64,000 nucleotides of DNA from Erysipelotrichaceae bacterium (lineage in GTDB: Bacteria; Bacillota_I; Bacilli_A; RFN20; CAG-826), in the NCBI GenBank assembly GCA_012518415.1, contig JAAYSH010000035.1, positions 934 through 64,933 of the forward strand, read 5' to 3'. Under the pieces are notes generated by a model. It was given only the letters and a program-made list of their open reading frames with translations. It had not been told where the DNA came from and searched no databases. Numbering within the stretch: the stretch's first letter is position 1; every line of letters starts with the position of its first letter. Both the position numbers and the translations under genes were made by a program. Below, piece after piece: positions 7,110-12,696 of this stretch.

Positions 7110-7520
7110 TTATTCAGGTCGTTTTGTACCATAGAGTGAGCGTCCTTGACGACGTTTTTCAATTCCTGCTGTGTCAAGTGTACCTCTAACGACGTGATAA
7201 CGAACCCCTGGTAAGTCTTTAACACGGCCTCCGCGTACTAAGACGGTTGAGTGCTCTTGTAAGTTATGACCTTCACCACCAATATAAGCGTTAACCTCAT
7301 AGTTATTGCTTAAGCGAACCCGGGCATATTTACGTAATGCTGAGTTTGGTTTTTTCGGTGTAAGAGTTCCAACACGAGTACAAACACCACGTTTTTGCGG
7401 CGCGTTTTGGTTTGTTTCTTTTCTTTTAATCGAATTCCAGCGTTTGCCTAAAGCTGGTGATTTTGATTTAGTCACTTGTTTCTTGCGACCTTTACGTACT
7501 AGTTGTTCAATTGTTGGCAT
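7110..7520 (-). CDS. rpsL: 30S ribosomal protein S12
   Basis: [12 protein letters not shown]...[10 protein letters not shown]...[15 protein letters not shown] is a near-canonical S12 sequence. Confidence 0.96.
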
Positions 7521-7686
7521 GGCTTGTCTCCTTTCACATGGTAATTACAGTGTTTTATCTAAGCACACAAGTTCGGGCGTGTCATACCCTCCAAAACAAA
7601 GGAGTGACACTGTCACTAGCTTGTGTGATTTCGCACACGTATGGGATTATAAACTTTATATGTCTGCTTGTCAAGTAAATGCTTGC

Positions 7687-7923
7687 TAACTAGGTAATAA
7701 TGTCACTTTTCAAGGTTAATGCAACGGAATAGTGAAAAAGCTCAAAAATCAAATAAACAGCCAAGGTTAATTACACAACACAGTTAAAAAAGGCTGTTTT
7801 TTGTTTGAAATCGCATTAAAACAACTTTAAAAAGCACAAGAAAATAAACTTGATATCTTTTCAATCAAGGTTATTGAAACGCTCCGTTGCATTAACTTTG
7901 AAAAGTGACGTAACTAGGTAATA
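7687..7923. repeat. ~240-bp element bounded by 27-bp inverted repeats (1 mismatch) and 13-bp direct repeats, with an internal hairpin; lies upstream of rpsL
   Basis: GTCACTTTTCAAGGTTAATGCAACGGA at 7702-7728 is the reverse complement of 7883-7909 with one G/A mismatch. TAACTAGGTAATA occurs directly at 7687-7699 and 7911-7923. An internal AACAGCC...GGCTGTT hairpin followed by a T6 run lies at ~7758-7808. Confidence 0.55.
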
Positions 7924-7943
7924 TTTTTTTTGATTAAAACCGT

Positions 7944-9446
7944 TCAATACGTATTCGCTAAAAACTCAATCGTCATAGCATTTTTCGATTGTTTAATTAT
8001 TTTAAATGTAAACGGAAGTTTAGTATCATCTTTAAAAGTAAAGTTTGGGTAAATTTCACTGCCAAAATGATCGCTGTTTTTAAACAAGGTCGAGTTATTC
8101 GCAAAAGCGCCATCTTGACGGCGACTTCCACCTCTTTCTAACAAGTGATATAAAATTTCATTATCATCATATAATGGTGAGTTGTTATACATGAATGCAT
8201 TTTTTCCTGCGACAAGTGGACGTAAGTTTGCTTTTACGTGCATAACTTTAAGTCCATATTCACTAAACAAGTTTACTTTTTGTGAAGCATTCGCATCATA
8301 GTAATTTAAGTTTGTTGGCGTATAAAACTCAAGAAGCAAATATTCGCTAAATACATCAAAATCATTTTTTAATTGCGGAGTAATTAAAATGAAATCTCCA
8401 CTTGTAACAAATGGACGTAAAGTAATCTTTCCAGGACTAGTTACAATGTATGGTTTACTCCACCCTAAAAGCATCTTTGAAAAGGAACTATGATCGCCGA
8501 GAGAATAATCCATCATGTCCGCGCCTCCAAGTGGGCGGTAAGTGCCTGAGCCAGTATTATAGTAGTCTTCTAACCCAAGTAAATGACCTACTTCATGAAT
8601 TAATGTATGAGCATCGGGCATTTTATTATTTAGTGAATATTCGGGGTATAAAAAATCATAACTTGCCCATGCGTATGTTTTACCAACGGGTGAAGTTAAA
8701 TTAGGTGATTGTTTATCATAAGTTGTATACGCCCAAAATAAGGAATTGCGATTACTTCCTTCGCTTTCACTCGTTTTGCCACTGTTACCAATTGGGTGCG
8801 AATATATGACAAATGCTGCATCAACATAACCGTCTTCGTCTTGATCATACATTTGTTTAAATTCAAGTGGATCAACTGTTTGCTTATACGCTTCAATTGC
8901 TAGTTGCATTACTTTAGAGGAAATGCTTGTTTTTTCACTCTCACGGCAAACACCGCTTGAACAATTATTAATCCGGCTCATTAAGTTTTCGTCCTCAACC
9001 ATATACCAAGGTGCGACTTTACCGCCTAACTTTAATTTGCCGTAGCTTGATTTGTAATAAAAACTTGCGACTGACTCCCATTGGTTCACTTTTGGGTCAC
9101 CAAAAAAAGCATTTTCAATAATTTGATGTGCGTCTTCGCCATTATTATTATCGAGTTCGCTTTTAGGGTAACTTGGGAATTCAACAGGCAAAACGAGGAT
9201 GTTTTGTTTGCCTGATGCATCTAAATACTTTTGTTGCTCTTTTTCATTATTTGCTTTTTCAAATATTGTTTGAAAGTCTTGGACATATTCTTTTGGTTCA
9301 TAAAAATTTGGGCCGCTGAGGCGAGTAGGTTTATTGACATTATCACTAAATGCGTAGGGTTTACTGTCAACACCAAAACAAGCACAGCCACTTAATAAAA
9401 GTAAACTGACTAGAGTAAGGAGTGTTTTCCTTTTTGCTATAGTCAT
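7944..9446 (-). CDS. Lipoprotein, M6 (immune inhibitor A/InhA-like) zinc metallopeptidase family
   Basis: Signal peptide plus lipobox LLLSGC. HEVGHLLGLEDYY matches the M6-type HExxHxxGxxD zinc motif. N-terminal LVLPVEF...ESVASFYYKSSYG block resembles InhA-like proteins. Confidence 0.6.
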   Translation of the reverse strand: MTIAKRKTLLTLVSLLLLSGCACFGVDSKPYAFSDNVNKPTRLSGPNFYEPKEYVQDFQTIFEKANNEKEQQKYLDASGKQNILVLPVEFPSYPKSELDNNNGEDAHQIIENAFFGDPKVNQWESVASFYYKSSYGKLKLGGKVAPWYMVEDENLMSRINNCSSGVCRESEKTSISSKVMQLAIEAYKQTVDPLEFKQMYDQDEDGYVDAAFVIYSHPIGNSGKTSESEGSNRNSLFWAYTTYDKQSPNLTSPVGKTYAWASYDFLYPEYSLNNKMPDAHTLIHEVGHLLGLEDYYNTGSGTYRPLGGADMMDYSLGDHSSFSKMLLGWSKPYIVTSPGKITLRPFVTSGDFILITPQLKNDFDVFSEYLLLEFYTPTNLNYYDANASQKVNLFSEYGLKVMHVKANLRPLVAGKNAFMYNNSPLYDDNEILYHLLERGGSRRQDGAFANNSTLFKNSDHFGSEIYPNFTFKDDTKLPFTFKIIKQSKNAMTIEFLANTY

Positions 9447-9449
9447 AAA

Positions 9450-11141
9450 TTAATAACTCCTAATTTGAATTTTCGCCCCTTCTTCAGTAAGACTACCAAT
9501 TTTTACAGCATACCCAATACTTTCGCCGCTATTAAAGTTAAGTAATTTAAAGGCACTGCCTTCTTTATATAAACTATCGTTCGTTGCGACATATTTATTA
9601 CTTGGATCGCCAAACAGCTGATCAAATAAGGTTGGAGTTCGGTTTGGTTTGCCTTGGTCGGCTTTAACGATTTCGATAAGTGAATAATGCTCATTAACAA
9701 CGGAGCGCGGATTAAACGGATCAATCGTATTAGAATGTGCGACCTCGGTAAAATATGTATGAGGTGTTTGGTTTCTTCCTGCGATTGCCGTTGAAGGGGC
9801 TTCAATTTCATCGACATATTTAGTTTCACGAACATTTAAAGTTCTGACGCCATCATCAAGATAATAGGCGCTTCTAACTAAACGAGCATCAACATGTAAT
9901 AACCTAATACCTGGTTCAGAAAATCCCATTAATACATTGCTAAATGGATTATTTGGGTAAAATGCGTCCATATAATTAAGACCGCCAGGAGTGTAGTATT
10001 CGATCATAATATATTCATCAAATGGAGTATTATTCCAATTATTATTAATTAAAATAACATCGCCGGAACTATGAAATGGTCGAAGCGTAATATCACTATC
10101 ACCAGTTACTACAATTGGGTCAATCCATCCTAAAGCGAATTTAGAAAACGGGTTATGGTCACCAATCGTGCCATCCATCATATCGATATATCCAAGTGGT
10201 GCTTTTTTTCCGCCGTAGTCATAGTAGTCATCTAAACCTAAAATGTGACCAACTTCATGAATATATGTATGCGCATCAATTTCACTATCCCCGTAGCGGT
10301 TGTATAAAAAGTCATGACTTGCCCAAGCATATACTCCAGGAACTGGTTTATTCGTGTCACTAGGATCAATTGCTTCTTTATTTCCGTAATACCAAAATAC
10401 ATATGCCCAAAATACGTTGCTATCTAGCTGGGTTGTGTAATTGCGACCAGTTCTTTCATCATATAGGGTCTTTTCAGAATTTAAAAAGTTTGGAGCACTA
10501 TATACTAAGAAAATCGCATCAATTTCACCATCGTTATCTTGATCATATTCATTTAGTAAAGCTGCATCAAGTTGCTCATATACTTTTTCAAGTGCAAAAT
10601 ATGAGCCATCCATACCAGCATAATTGGGATTATTTTTGTTATTAGCGACATATTCGCTTAAATATGAGGTTGTAACACCTAAATCGACCCAGTTTGTTAC
10701 TTCTCCACTAAAATTAAGGGCACCGTAACTACTTTTATAATAATAAGATGCGACACTTTCAAAAACTGTATCATCACTACTACCAAAAAAGGCTTTTTCG
10801 AGTCGTTGTCTTGTTATTTCACCACCTGCACTATCGAGTTCACTTGCAGGATAATCACTAAATTCAACCGGCACAACAAGGAGTTTTTGCTCTCCTGTAC
10901 TATTAATCGTACTAATACCGTTAAGCTCATTTAAATATTTATATGTCGGGCGCTCTCCACTAGGAATATAGTTCTTATAGCCCTGATTATCTTGTTCATT
11001 AAATTCATCAAATGATATTGGAGCTTCGCTACTACTTGGCTCCTCATTATAGTCAATTATCGGAAAAGGCCATTCACAACTACTTAAAAGTAATGTTGCT
11101 AAGATGCTAAATCCAAATAGCTTTTTGCGTTTCATTCTCAC
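9450..11141 (-). CDS. Lipoprotein, M6 (InhA-like) zinc metallopeptidase paralog
   Basis: Lipobox LLLSSC; HEVGHILGLDDYYDY; LLVVPVEFSDY...ESVASYYYKSSYG. A 3-nt gap separates it from the downstream paralog. GGAGGAGG RBS upstream. Confidence 0.6.
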   Translation of the reverse strand: MRMKRKKLFGFSILATLLLSSCEWPFPIIDYNEEPSSSEAPISFDEFNEQDNQGYKNYIPSGERPTYKYLNELNGISTINSTGEQKLLVVPVEFSDYPASELDSAGGEITRQRLEKAFFGSSDDTVFESVASYYYKSSYGALNFSGEVTNWVDLGVTTSYLSEYVANNKNNPNYAGMDGSYFALEKVYEQLDAALLNEYDQDNDGEIDAIFLVYSAPNFLNSEKTLYDERTGRNYTTQLDSNVFWAYVFWYYGNKEAIDPSDTNKPVPGVYAWASHDFLYNRYGDSEIDAHTYIHEVGHILGLDDYYDYGGKKAPLGYIDMMDGTIGDHNPFSKFALGWIDPIVVTGDSDITLRPFHSSGDVILINNNWNNTPFDEYIMIEYYTPGGLNYMDAFYPNNPFSNVLMGFSEPGIRLLHVDARLVRSAYYLDDGVRTLNVRETKYVDEIEAPSTAIAGRNQTPHTYFTEVAHSNTIDPFNPRSVVNEHYSLIEIVKADQGKPNRTPTLFDQLFGDPSNKYVATNDSLYKEGSAFKLLNFNSGESIGYAVKIGSLTEEGAKIQIRSY

Positions 11142-11205
11142 TACCTCCTCCTTAGTCTATCTTTATAATTATAACTTTATTATTGTAACATGTGGAGTTT
11201 ATGCT

Positions 11206-12597
11206 TTATTCATGAGGAAGAATATCTTCGCCTTTTTGCTTAGGCAGCGGCAAAACAATATTTAAAATGAAACTAGCAACAATAATTATTAAAAAGAAAT
11301 TAATTTTTACACTACCAATCGTTAAGCTTAGTGCGAGTGTATAGCCTAAAAATATTTCCGCTAAGAAAAAGCCACCTAAAATAAAACCGAGTAATAAAAT
11401 AAGTATCACTCCAACACCTGTCCGAAGTTTTCCTTGCTCCTTAACTCCTGCTTTAATTAAATTAAACCCGTTGATAAATAGTCTTGAGGCAAATAAAAAT
11501 AAAAAGGCAAAATAAATCCCTTCAGGAATTGTCTGGAGAATATATTCAAGTGGTAAAGCAAAAACTAAAATAATTATCCCCATTAAAAAGGTAGTATTTA
11601 TAATCTTTTCTTTTTTATTAATATATCTAACTTCTTCACTTATAAGTTCAAAAGGCGGGATCGCAAAGGCTGAATTTGCTAAAGTCAGACCACTATCTAG
11701 TAAAATTTTCGAATCTAAACTAGGTCCTTCCTTTAACTTTTTGCTAACTTCTTCTCCTTCACCCCGGTACATATTTACTGTGTTTGAAAAACTAATAACT
11801 GTAAGTGCAAGCGCAAGTAAAATTAACGACCAATCAAAATCGATATGGTTATAAAATCTAAAATATTCGCCTAAATTACTAAAAACAAAATAATTATAAT
11901 GACCAAACTCTTGAAAACGGGCAAAATATAATGTGCCTTCAAGTGAAGCTTGCGTTGCAAGCATAATTAAGTCATGAATCACATAAATTAAAATGCCCAT
12001 AATAAAAATAAGTGGTAGTTTGTAGCGATTAAAGAAACTATCCTTACTAAGCGAATTAAATAAATAAAACAAAAAGACAAACAAAACTAGATTACTTATA
12101 CCTATATAGTTAATTACCCCGCCTTGATCAAGGGGAACATAAGTAAACTTCACTAAAATTCCGACCATAAATAGTGCCGCAAATACAATTGAAAGCGCAC
12201 CTGCAAAATAAGGCGGAATGAGTTTTTTCTTCATTCTTGGAGTAAAAAGATGGTAAACCATCGCAAATACGAGGTAAACGATTGCGATTATCCAAGAAGC
12301 AATCGCGACCCTACCTCGAGCAATCGCGCTAGCACTTACTCCATCACCTACTTCACTACTACCTAGTGTTAAAATAAAAATCGGTAAAAAAATAAAGTTT
12401 GGGATAAATAAGCCAAGCCGGTCTTTTTTATCAAAAATAATAAATGCGATTGATCCAATTGCCGCAAGTAAAATTCCAATACCTAAATGTGCTTTTGCAG
12501 CCAAAAGTGCCATGATTAATAAAACACTAAAATTAGTTATATTAACGCCGTAGGCACTTTTCTTAGATTTTACTTTTGCAACATCCGTTTTATTCAT
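11206..12597 (-). CDS. Polytopic integral membrane protein (~12 TM), unknown function; first gene of the membrane protein + 2x M6 protease operon
   Basis: 463-aa hydrophobic ORF with no recognised motif. TATAAT lies 6 nt upstream of the ATG and there is no SD sequence, so the transcript may be leaderless. Confidence 0.5.
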   Translation of the reverse strand: MNKTDVAKVKSKKSAYGVNITNFSVLLIMALLAAKAHLGIGILLAAIGSIAFIIFDKKDRLGLFIPNFIFLPIFILTLGSSEVGDGVSASAIARGRVAIASWIIAIVYLVFAMVYHLFTPRMKKKLIPPYFAGALSIVFAALFMVGILVKFTYVPLDQGGVINYIGISNLVLFVFLFYLFNSLSKDSFFNRYKLPLIFIMGILIYVIHDLIMLATQASLEGTLYFARFQEFGHYNYFVFSNLGEYFRFYNHIDFDWSLILLALALTVISFSNTVNMYRGEGEEVSKKLKEGPSLDSKILLDSGLTLANSAFAIPPFELISEEVRYINKKEKIINTTFLMGIIILVFALPLEYILQTIPEGIYFAFLFLFASRLFINGFNLIKAGVKEQGKLRTGVGVILILLLGFILGGFFLAEIFLGYTLALSLTIGSVKINFFLIIIVASFILNIVLPLPKQKGEDILPHE

Positions 12598-12642
12598 AAG
12601 ATAATTATATCTAATTTAACCATCAAAAAGGAAAATACATGA

Positions 12643-12675
12643 CAAAAAAAACAAAAAACTGCGGCATAACCGCAG
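12643..12675 (-). terminator. Rho-independent terminator downstream of rpoC
   Basis: Stem CTGCGG/CCGCAG (12659-12664 / 12670-12675) with a CATAA loop. On the minus-strand RNA it is followed by a U-rich run (A-rich 12643-12658 on the plus strand). Confidence 0.65.
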
Positions 12676-12696
12676 TTTAATGTTTACTTTAGCGAT

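Follow-up and report, generated by a model that had tools for sequence, protein, structure and literature searches.

Introduction

Insertion sequences (IS) of the IS30 family contain a single open reading frame (ORF), measure approximately 1.0 to 1.7 kb, and end in terminal repeats of 20 to 30 bp, and their transposases act on their own ends. Mycoplasmas and the Erysipelotrichaceae, which concern us here, belong to the same broad low-GC Firmicute lineage. The family layout given above agrees with published descriptions (PMC7648426, PMC3317919), and the members typically generate target duplications of 2 bp, within a range of 1 to 3 bp (PMC5821093). For IS30 and ISApl1, imprecise loss through short repeats has also been reported (PMC5821093). 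Two elements from mycoplasmas are of particular relevance. IS1630 of Mycoplasma fermentans, as summarized in PMC3317919 with reference to Calcutt 1999, is an IS30-type element with 27-bp ends and target duplications of 16 to 26 bp, and ISMhom-1 of Mycoplasma hominis is a member of the IS30 family that likewise has 27-bp ends (PMC7648426). Among the short elements, the pneumococcal SPRITE and RUP are MITEs with terminator-like or RNA-hairpin content (review PMC10969869).

Here we analyse a repeat located upstream of the str operon of an Erysipelotrichaceae bacterium. Throughout the text, "the window" is the whole stretch of DNA that was analysed, with a length of 64 kb; positions refer to it unless another sequence is named, and related sequences are designated by L numbers. 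The original prediction, made from the letters of the window, described a pair of inverted arms with flanking direct repeats and offered three readings: a MITE-like mobile element, a long-range RNA structure that governs read-through or str-operon expression, or a gene for a small structured RNA. According to our analysis, the repeat is very probably a non-autonomous, internally deleted copy of a 1527-bp insertion sequence of the IS30 family.

Results

Structure of the element

The element proper comprises 210 bp (7701 to 7910) between the M6 lipoprotein operon and the rpsL promoter. The 27-mer GTCACTTTTCAAGGTTAATGCAACGGA, present at 7702 to 7728 of the plus strand, recurs with one mismatch at 7883 to 7909 of the minus strand; no further match with up to three mismatches was found in the 64 kb, none of 100 shuffles matched, and the pair is by far the best inverted repeat of the window. 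The 13-mer TAACTAGGTAATA has exactly two copies in the window (7687 to 7699 and 7911 to 7923), where 0.14 matches would be expected by chance with up to one mismatch, and two copies appeared in no shuffle. Using the parent IS and the other insertions described below, the lengths of both repeats were refined: the arms, the first of which begins with TGTCAC and the second of which ends with GTGACG, have 28 bp and are identical in 26 of them, and the direct repeats, which adjoin both arms, have 14 bp, of which 13 are identical. The 27-bp arms with a single mismatch and the 13-bp direct repeats that had been proposed are thus confirmed in a slightly enlarged form. The positions of all features are compiled in Table 1.

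Table 1. Features of the element and of its immediate surroundings, in window coordinates.
Feature	Position	Strand	Evidence
str-operon promoter TTGACA-17-TATAAT (neighbour, outside the element)	7646..7674	-	12 of 12 consensus matches
Target-site duplication, rpsL side, TAACTAGGTAATAA	7687..7700		exact 13-mer repeat; 14-bp duplications at independent insertions (L039, L040, L032, L042/L043)
Arm B, terminal inverted repeat, transposase-distal end	7701..7728	+	three differences from the IS consensus CGTCACTTTTCAAAGTTAATACAACGGA, at positions 1, 13, and 20
Non-coding interior	7729..7882	-	collinear with the untranslated 3' end of the IS and with the 17-nt junction repeat
Hairpin AAACAGCC / GGCTGTTT, flanked on each side by T-rich runs	7752..7802		from the region downstream of the transposase gene
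17-nt repeat TCAAGGTTATTGAAACG, putative deletion junction	7865..7881	+	two direct copies in the IS: position 166, within the 3' end, and position 1482, beside the 5' arm
Arm A, terminal inverted repeat, transposase-proximal end	7883..7910	-	one difference from the IS consensus, at position 20
Target-site duplication, M6 side, TAACTAGGTAATAT	7911..7924		repeat search and other insertions

No ORF of 40 aa or longer exists inside the 210 bp; the sense strand of the lost transposase gene corresponds to the minus strand of the window. The AACAGCC...GGCTGTT hairpin with its run of T was found where it had been predicted. The recurring submotifs similar to CAAGGTTAAT, which had also been noted, are present at 7711, 7762, and 7865, and they correspond to the inner part of the arm and its subterminal copies, the 17-nt repeat itself resembling the inner part of the arm. 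The 46 nt formed by the subterminal repeat and arm A are the same terminus as that of the full IS in L007, L035, and L037. The A run at 7924 to 7931, which separates the M6 stop codon from the duplication copy, differs in length among assemblies, with one or two A fewer in L021 and L012.

Genomic setting

All the neighbouring genes are on the minus strand, in the order rpoB, rpoC, a 463-aa protein without a Pfam match, two Peptidase_M6 lipoproteins, the element, rpsL, rpsG, fusA, and tuf. The second M6 lipoprotein gene (7944 to 9446) ends at 7944 and rpsL (7110 to 7520) starts at 7520, in accordance with the context originally described. The str promoter, which had been expected in this region, lies outside the element, on its rpsL side and 12 nt beyond the rpsL-side duplication copy; it is identical in the strain that carries a flipped element (L007), and it is downstream of the element and appears untouched by it. 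No consensus promoter was detected inside the element. When the empty site (...AAAAAAAATATTACCTAGTTAGCAAGC...) was reconstructed by removing the element and one duplication copy, only about 45 nt remained from the M6 stop codon to the -35 box, with no terminator in them; the insertion lengthened the spacer between the M6 and str operons by 224 bp.

Other observations were made in this region. The 5' leader of rpsL (7521 to 7645, minus strand) has two small hairpins, the second of which (AGTGAC-AGT-GTCACT, 7617 to 7603, followed by CCTTTGTTTT) was flagged as terminator-like and differs only in its loop in a related strain; the leader has no Rfam match, and the z-score of its fold is only -0.7. 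The 463-aa protein and the two Peptidase_M6 lipoproteins (7944 to 12597) are placed between rpoC and rpsL and split the usual rpoBC-str neighbourhood, and a distant relative (L008) has a similar insertion with an added xanthine/uracil permease gene. The M6 gene at 7944 to 9446 exists in at least 12 protein variants, which are mosaic combinations of a few polymorphic sites, with two distinct C-terminal haplotypes, …KIIKQSKNAMTIEFLANTY and …KIVSQSKTSLTIEFMANTQ; this pattern of sequence variation points to recombination among strains at this surface-protein gene.

The parent insertion sequence

A third copy of the arm, with 18 subterminal nt, is present in L007 upstream of the lipoprotein cassette, directly after the rpoC terminator stem. 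Beside it lie a ribosome-binding site and the first codons of a divergent gene (MYFNHLKFED...). A back-translated pattern for these first 10 residues gave no matches in the GTDB species genomes. A degenerate pattern based on the consensus of the arm and the subterminal repeat gave five matches in all in the JGI metagenomes, one of which, L035, has two inverted arms 1.5 kb apart around a 398-aa ORF with the MYFNHLKFED start; L033 (GC-rich context) and L036 (DnaA-box region) were set aside as probable chance matches. The complete IS has 1527 bp, perfect 28-bp ends, and one gene, and is organized as a 5' end of 111 nt, the gene for the 398-aa transposase, and a 3' end of 219 nt containing the hairpin.

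The 398-aa protein scores 91.9 bits with the NCBIfam model NF033563, "IS30 family transposase" (cut-off 80, E 5e-26), has weak matches to HTH_38 and rve in Pfam that are below the cut-offs, and has homologues that, where named (JGI, NCBI), are called IS30 family transposase. D223, D283, and E322, picked by motif only, are the candidate catalytic residues. The size, the single ORF, and the terminal repeats fit the description of the IS30 family, from whose target duplication of 2 to 3 bp the parent departs with 14 bp in five cases. It appears to be a previously undescribed IS30-family insertion sequence of an uncultured lineage from biogas reactors.

A search with the M6 protein retrieved near-identical contigs from biogas and anaerobic-digester metagenomes, the host being named a MAG of Erysipelotrichaceae in one source and its relatives Bacilli in others. 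One of the related contigs, L007, physically joins the end of the IS (141 of 141 nt identical) to the cluster formed by the hypothetical protein, the two M6 genes, and rpsL. An identical transposase (P0255) is encoded on 18 contigs with different genomic contexts, including assemblies that hold the locus (ERZ2648292, ERZ925077, ERZ27280805, and GCA_040436515.1). In ERZ2647959, five IS copies are on contigs with a coverage of 31.4 to 31.6, and the M6 contig has 31.8; the corresponding values in ERZ2648292 are 23.5 for the IS copies and 21.6 for the M6 contig. All the IS copies are full length (1527 bp) and more than 99.6% identical. The parent IS is active in the host bacterium.

The break points of assemblies offer another view of the same relationship. 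The 31-mers that the window has in common with the IS start at 7783 to 7791 and at 7829 to 7851; therefore, assemblies with k=31 should break at 7812 when coming from rpsL and at 7852 when coming from M6. Logan contigs from different runs end exactly at these positions, four at 7812 and nine at 7852, and a contig that carries a SNP at 7797 stops at 7858, as predicted by the same 31-mer analysis. An autonomous partner with the same ends is, in summary, linked to the locus in L007, present in at least five copies at equal coverage, and independently predicted by the break points. Reproducible break points of k-mer assemblies can reveal an element of this type.

With respect to the surroundings of the rpoC terminator, the full IS copy at L007:1-141 (compare window 12598-12696) is located exactly after the terminator stem, and the next 14 nt are the T tract of the terminator, GTTTTTTGTTTTTT. 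In L007, the IS and the short element, in direct orientation, stand on either side of the three-gene lipoprotein cassette, an arrangement similar to a composite transposon. L031 has the same type of flank as L007 and is without the IS at the rpoC terminator.

Target-site duplications

Duplications of 14 bp were found around a full IS in L039 (ATTCGCTCTTTATA), across a scaffold gap in L040 (ACCTATATTTACTA), and, in perfect form, around a 55-bp derivative in L032 (TTTTTTATTCACGT), while the IS copies of L042 and L043 have one half each of a shared 14-mer (GTATAGTGTTGCTG). Including the 13 of 14 bp of the window, the length is fixed at 14 bp in all five scorable cases. Because a 14-bp duplication accompanies four other insertions, the repeat that flanks the window element is best read as a target-site duplication as well. 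Several full IS copies have no matching duplications in the assemblies, which may be due to recombination between copies or to mis-scaffolding over a repeat of 1.5 kb. L042 and L043 are inverted copies on the same 435-kb contig, approximately 48 kb apart, and their half-duplications suggest an IS-mediated inversion of 48 kb or a scaffolding error. At another insertion site, the flanks are combined differently in four assemblies (L039, L041, L046, and L035).

Derivation of the short element

When the 1316 bp between the two 17-nt copies are virtually deleted from the IS, the product has 211 nt and aligns end to end with 7701 to 7910, with approximately 95% identity and about 11 differences. The hairpin of the window is the stem-loop that lies downstream of the IS transposase gene. 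The subterminal copies of the inner arm are probably the repeats that mediated the deletion. The 55-bp mini derivative of L032 (L032:181-235) is located at an unrelated intergenic site and consists of an outer arm fused to the subterminal repeat and followed by the other arm; it probably arose likewise, by a deletion between the arm and the subterminal repeat. The window element differs from the present IS copies by about 5%, and these copies from one another by less than 0.4%; this divergence would make the element older than the current burst of the IS, or a product of a different IS lineage.

The original suggestion of a MITE-like mobile element is supported by the IS30-type ends, the 14-bp duplication, and the collinear interior, whereas the copy number of the short form does not bear it out in the sequences searched. 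As in a MITE, its length of 210 bp is below approximately 500 bp, a transposase gene is absent, and terminal repeats, a duplication of the cognate length, and an autonomous partner are present; dispersed short copies were not found in the sequences searched, which gave one locus with the 210-bp form and a different derivative of 55 bp at one other. Searches of the 64-kb window, of approximately 100 kb of related loci, of the GTDB species representatives, and of the JGI, viral, plasmid, and phage collections revealed the 210-bp form nowhere else. More specifically, the exact and degenerate arm patterns gave no matches in the GTDB species genomes, nor did the arm 22-mer in the JGI metagenomes or the arm pattern in the viral contigs, and BLASTN found no match of the IS end in plasmids or of the element in phages. 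Multiple copies of the 240 bp had been proposed as the mark of a MITE; what is present in multiple copies is the full IS.

A variant of the main reading is that the element is a true MITE that arrived at the site already in its 210-bp form, having been moved in trans by the transposase of full-length copies. Both arms and an intact duplication (13 of 14 bp) are present, full copies with an intact transposase exist in the same genomes, and a second deletion derivative, that of L032, has a perfect 14-bp duplication elsewhere, all of which speaks for such a history. However, no collection searched yielded a second 210-bp copy, a deletion between the 17-nt repeats after the insertion yields exactly the same structure, and a deletion in place could also explain the 55-bp form. 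We regard arrival in the short form as possible and treat it as a tentative alternative. Because the 210-bp form is known from one locus only, we designate the element an [quoted passage not shown] instead of a plain MITE.

The flipped allele

Ten sequences from different assemblies that span the element (the window, L001 to L004, L012, L021, L022, L048, and L049) share one orientation, with zero to two differences. In L007, from a strain with 98% M6 identity, the whole segment from arm to arm is inverted (96% identity over 208 nt). Both orientations are therefore present, in different strain backgrounds, ten sequences versus one rearranged contig. The rpsL-side flank of L007 is the same as that of the window, and in both strains the position-13 mismatch of the arms remains associated with the flanks, which argues for a crossover inside the arms and not for a re-insertion. 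On the M6 side, L007 has a different spacer of 106 nt that lacks the duplication copy, the last 155 nt of its M6 gene are only 84.5% identical, and its M6-side arm together with the first 60 nt is identical to the present IS, the remainder resembling the window. The junction between this spacer and the arm was confirmed in a second assembly, L031.

Judging from these junctions, L007 seems to be a mosaic rearrangement rather than a clean flip or a switch. The minimum that would account for its history is an inversion from arm to arm and, in addition, a replacement or gene conversion, and no one-step model fits, neither a single inversion nor a recombination with a second copy. A rearrangement mediated by the transposase is a plausible origin of this allele. 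An assembly artefact was rejected on two grounds: the arms share no exact stretch of 21 nt or longer, and the junction of the proximal subterminal repeat, the G13/T1 arm, and the rpsL flank is absent from the window-type arrangement. An independent insertion in the opposite orientation was also rejected, given that T1, G13, and the duplication copy on the rpsL side are identical in both alleles, and so was a mixture of orientations as the origin of the Logan ends at 7852 and 7812, for it would break the contigs at the inner arm boundaries, 7883 and 7728.

The inversion of L007 with its identical rpsL-side flank, together with a crossover placed inside the arms by the position-13 variant, raises the question of an inverton, in which a site-specific recombinase would flip the 154-bp interior between the 27-bp inverted repeats and change the hairpin or terminator face presented to transcripts that come out of the lipoprotein operon or run into the str operon. 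One Logan contig breaks at 7867, as expected if a flipped junction coexists in the sample, and the flipped state turns the better T run, GGCTGTTTTTTGTTT, to the lipoprotein operon. Nevertheless, the arms are the ends of a transposable element with a target duplication, which an inverton does not need, and the sole flipped sequence among those spanning the element is a mosaic in its flank, its M6 3' end, and its IS-identical arm plus 60 nt. Nine Logan samples break at the start of the IS k-mers and not at the inner arm boundary. Neither a transposase nor a recombinase is encoded among the 30 non-ribosomal ORFs of the window, the element has no internal consensus promoter and the str promoter lies outside it, the hairpin is terminator-like both ways instead of depending on the orientation, and the arm, as we read its sequence, does not resemble a recombinase core. 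An inverton is thus very unlikely. We give just as little credence to the idea that the relic was co-opted as a flip-flop, in which the IS30-type transposase, acting in trans, or a recombinase encoded elsewhere would repeatedly recombine the arms.

A further junction involves the same arm. At L050:2931-2988 (ERZ2647959), arm B is cut at 7706 and joined to other DNA, whose reverse complement, TTGCACTTAGTCTGTCATTTAAC, resembles the 24 nt that adjoin the flipped arm at L007:4930-4961, TTGCAATTAGTCTGTCACTTAAC. A motif of approximately 24 nt, TTGCAnTTAGTCTGTCAyTTAAC, thus adjoins the arm in two arrangements (L050 and L007). This motif may mark a second mobile element or a hotspot, or it may be what remains of an old arm, given that arm B begins with TGTCACTT.

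RNA structure of the element

The sequence of the element folds far better than its shuffles, with z-scores of -7.3 as RNA and -8.6 as DNA. The hairpin at 7752 to 7802 folds with -14.0 kcal/mol on the minus strand and with -15.6 kcal/mol on the plus strand (z-score of -3.4), and is predicted to be modestly terminator-like in both directions; the consensus terminator scan did not call it, because its loop is too long. In Rfam, there were no matches for the whole window at the gathering thresholds and none at E<=1 for 7450 to 8000.

A structured RNA, either a leader or attenuator of read-through into the str operon or a small RNA gene, as originally put forward, could draw on the strong fold and on the hairpin followed by a T run, but it can be set aside almost entirely: the strong z-score is explained by the pairing of the terminal repeats, Rfam gave no match, the element is upstream of a perfect-consensus str promoter and hence outside the str leader, its sequence serves as the untranslated ends of the IS at many unrelated loci, no internal promoter was detected, and the element is absent from the syntenic spacer of a distant relative.

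Discussion

The window element is thus very probably an IS30-family copy that lost its transposase gene, and its history may be outlined as follows. The target TAACTAGGTAATA(A/T), with the M6 stop codon on one side and the -35 box of the str promoter on the other, would have been cut by the transposase with a stagger of 14 bp and duplicated upon repair. The transposase gene would have been lost through recombination or slippage between the 17-nt repeats, either in place, after the insertion of a full IS, or earlier, the short form then being moved in trans. Since the arms of the window have one to three mismatches in 28 bp from the ends of the IS, the transposase of the full copies could still act on them. 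The two derivatives, of 210 and 55 bp, would represent the birth of short non-autonomous elements by way of arm-like subterminal repeats.

At its present site, the element is probably passive cargo. It would place 224 bp more between the lipoprotein operon and the str promoter, together with a modest hairpin that is terminator-like in both directions, and in any transcript that enters it from the lipoprotein operon the two arms would form an RNA stem of 27 bp. According to this model, it may reduce the read-through from the lipoprotein operon into the str operon. Were the flip-flop real, the orientations would alternate among strains or subpopulations and tune the read-through into rpsL-rpsG-fusA-tuf, placing different terminator faces and RNA-hairpin contexts between a variable M6 lipoprotein operon and the essential str operon. 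A subgroup of the IS30 family with a fixed 14-bp staggered cut, defined by the parent IS, is more likely than this co-option. In the main reading, the conspicuous repeat directly upstream of a core ribosomal-protein operon is transposon debris, and not a new regulatory RNA or switch.

Comparison with known systems

With SPRITE and RUP, the element shares its small size, the lack of coding sequence, an intergenic position, terminal inverted repeats with a target duplication, the capacity to fold into a long hairpin, and a terminator-like stem-loop. Unlike them, with their tens to hundreds of copies per genome, the 210-bp form is known from a single locus, and its parent IS has been identified and is still active.

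The parent belongs to the same transposase family as IS30 and ISApl1 by the NCBIfam cut-off and has, as they do, one ORF enclosed by terminal repeats; loss by way of short repeats, reported as imprecise for those elements, would be a further trait in common. Its duplication is 14 bp, in contrast to the 2 bp (1 to 3 bp) of those elements, for which copy-out-paste-in transposition via a circle is documented. The resemblance to ISMhom-1 extends to the single transposase gene, the untranslated ends (approximately 108 and 140 bp in ISMhom-1, 111 and 219 bp here), the terminal repeats (27 bp in ISMhom-1), and the insertions in untranslated regions and gene 3' ends; ISMhom-1 differs in its host, is shorter (1.26 kb), and is without a reported deletion derivative.

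The closest likeness in duplication length is with IS1630. As far as the summary of IS1630 in PMC3317919 extends, both elements have an IS30-family transposase, ends of about 27 bp, and long duplications (16 to 26 bp there and 14 bp here), and both are multi-copy in a low-GC, Mollicutes-related host. The location of the L007 IS at the boundary between the stem and the T tract of the rpoC terminator recalls the inverted-repeat targeting reported in that summary for IS1630, although the other target sites found here show no obvious inverted repeat. The duplication is fixed at 14 bp here and described as variable there, and the parent IS, compared with that description, is longer (1527 bp versus 1.2 to 1.4 kb). 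A duplication of 14 bp is unusual for IS30 elements and finds its precedent in IS1630 as there summarized; its constancy carries the long-duplication behaviour of the IS1630 type to a relative outside the mycoplasmas.
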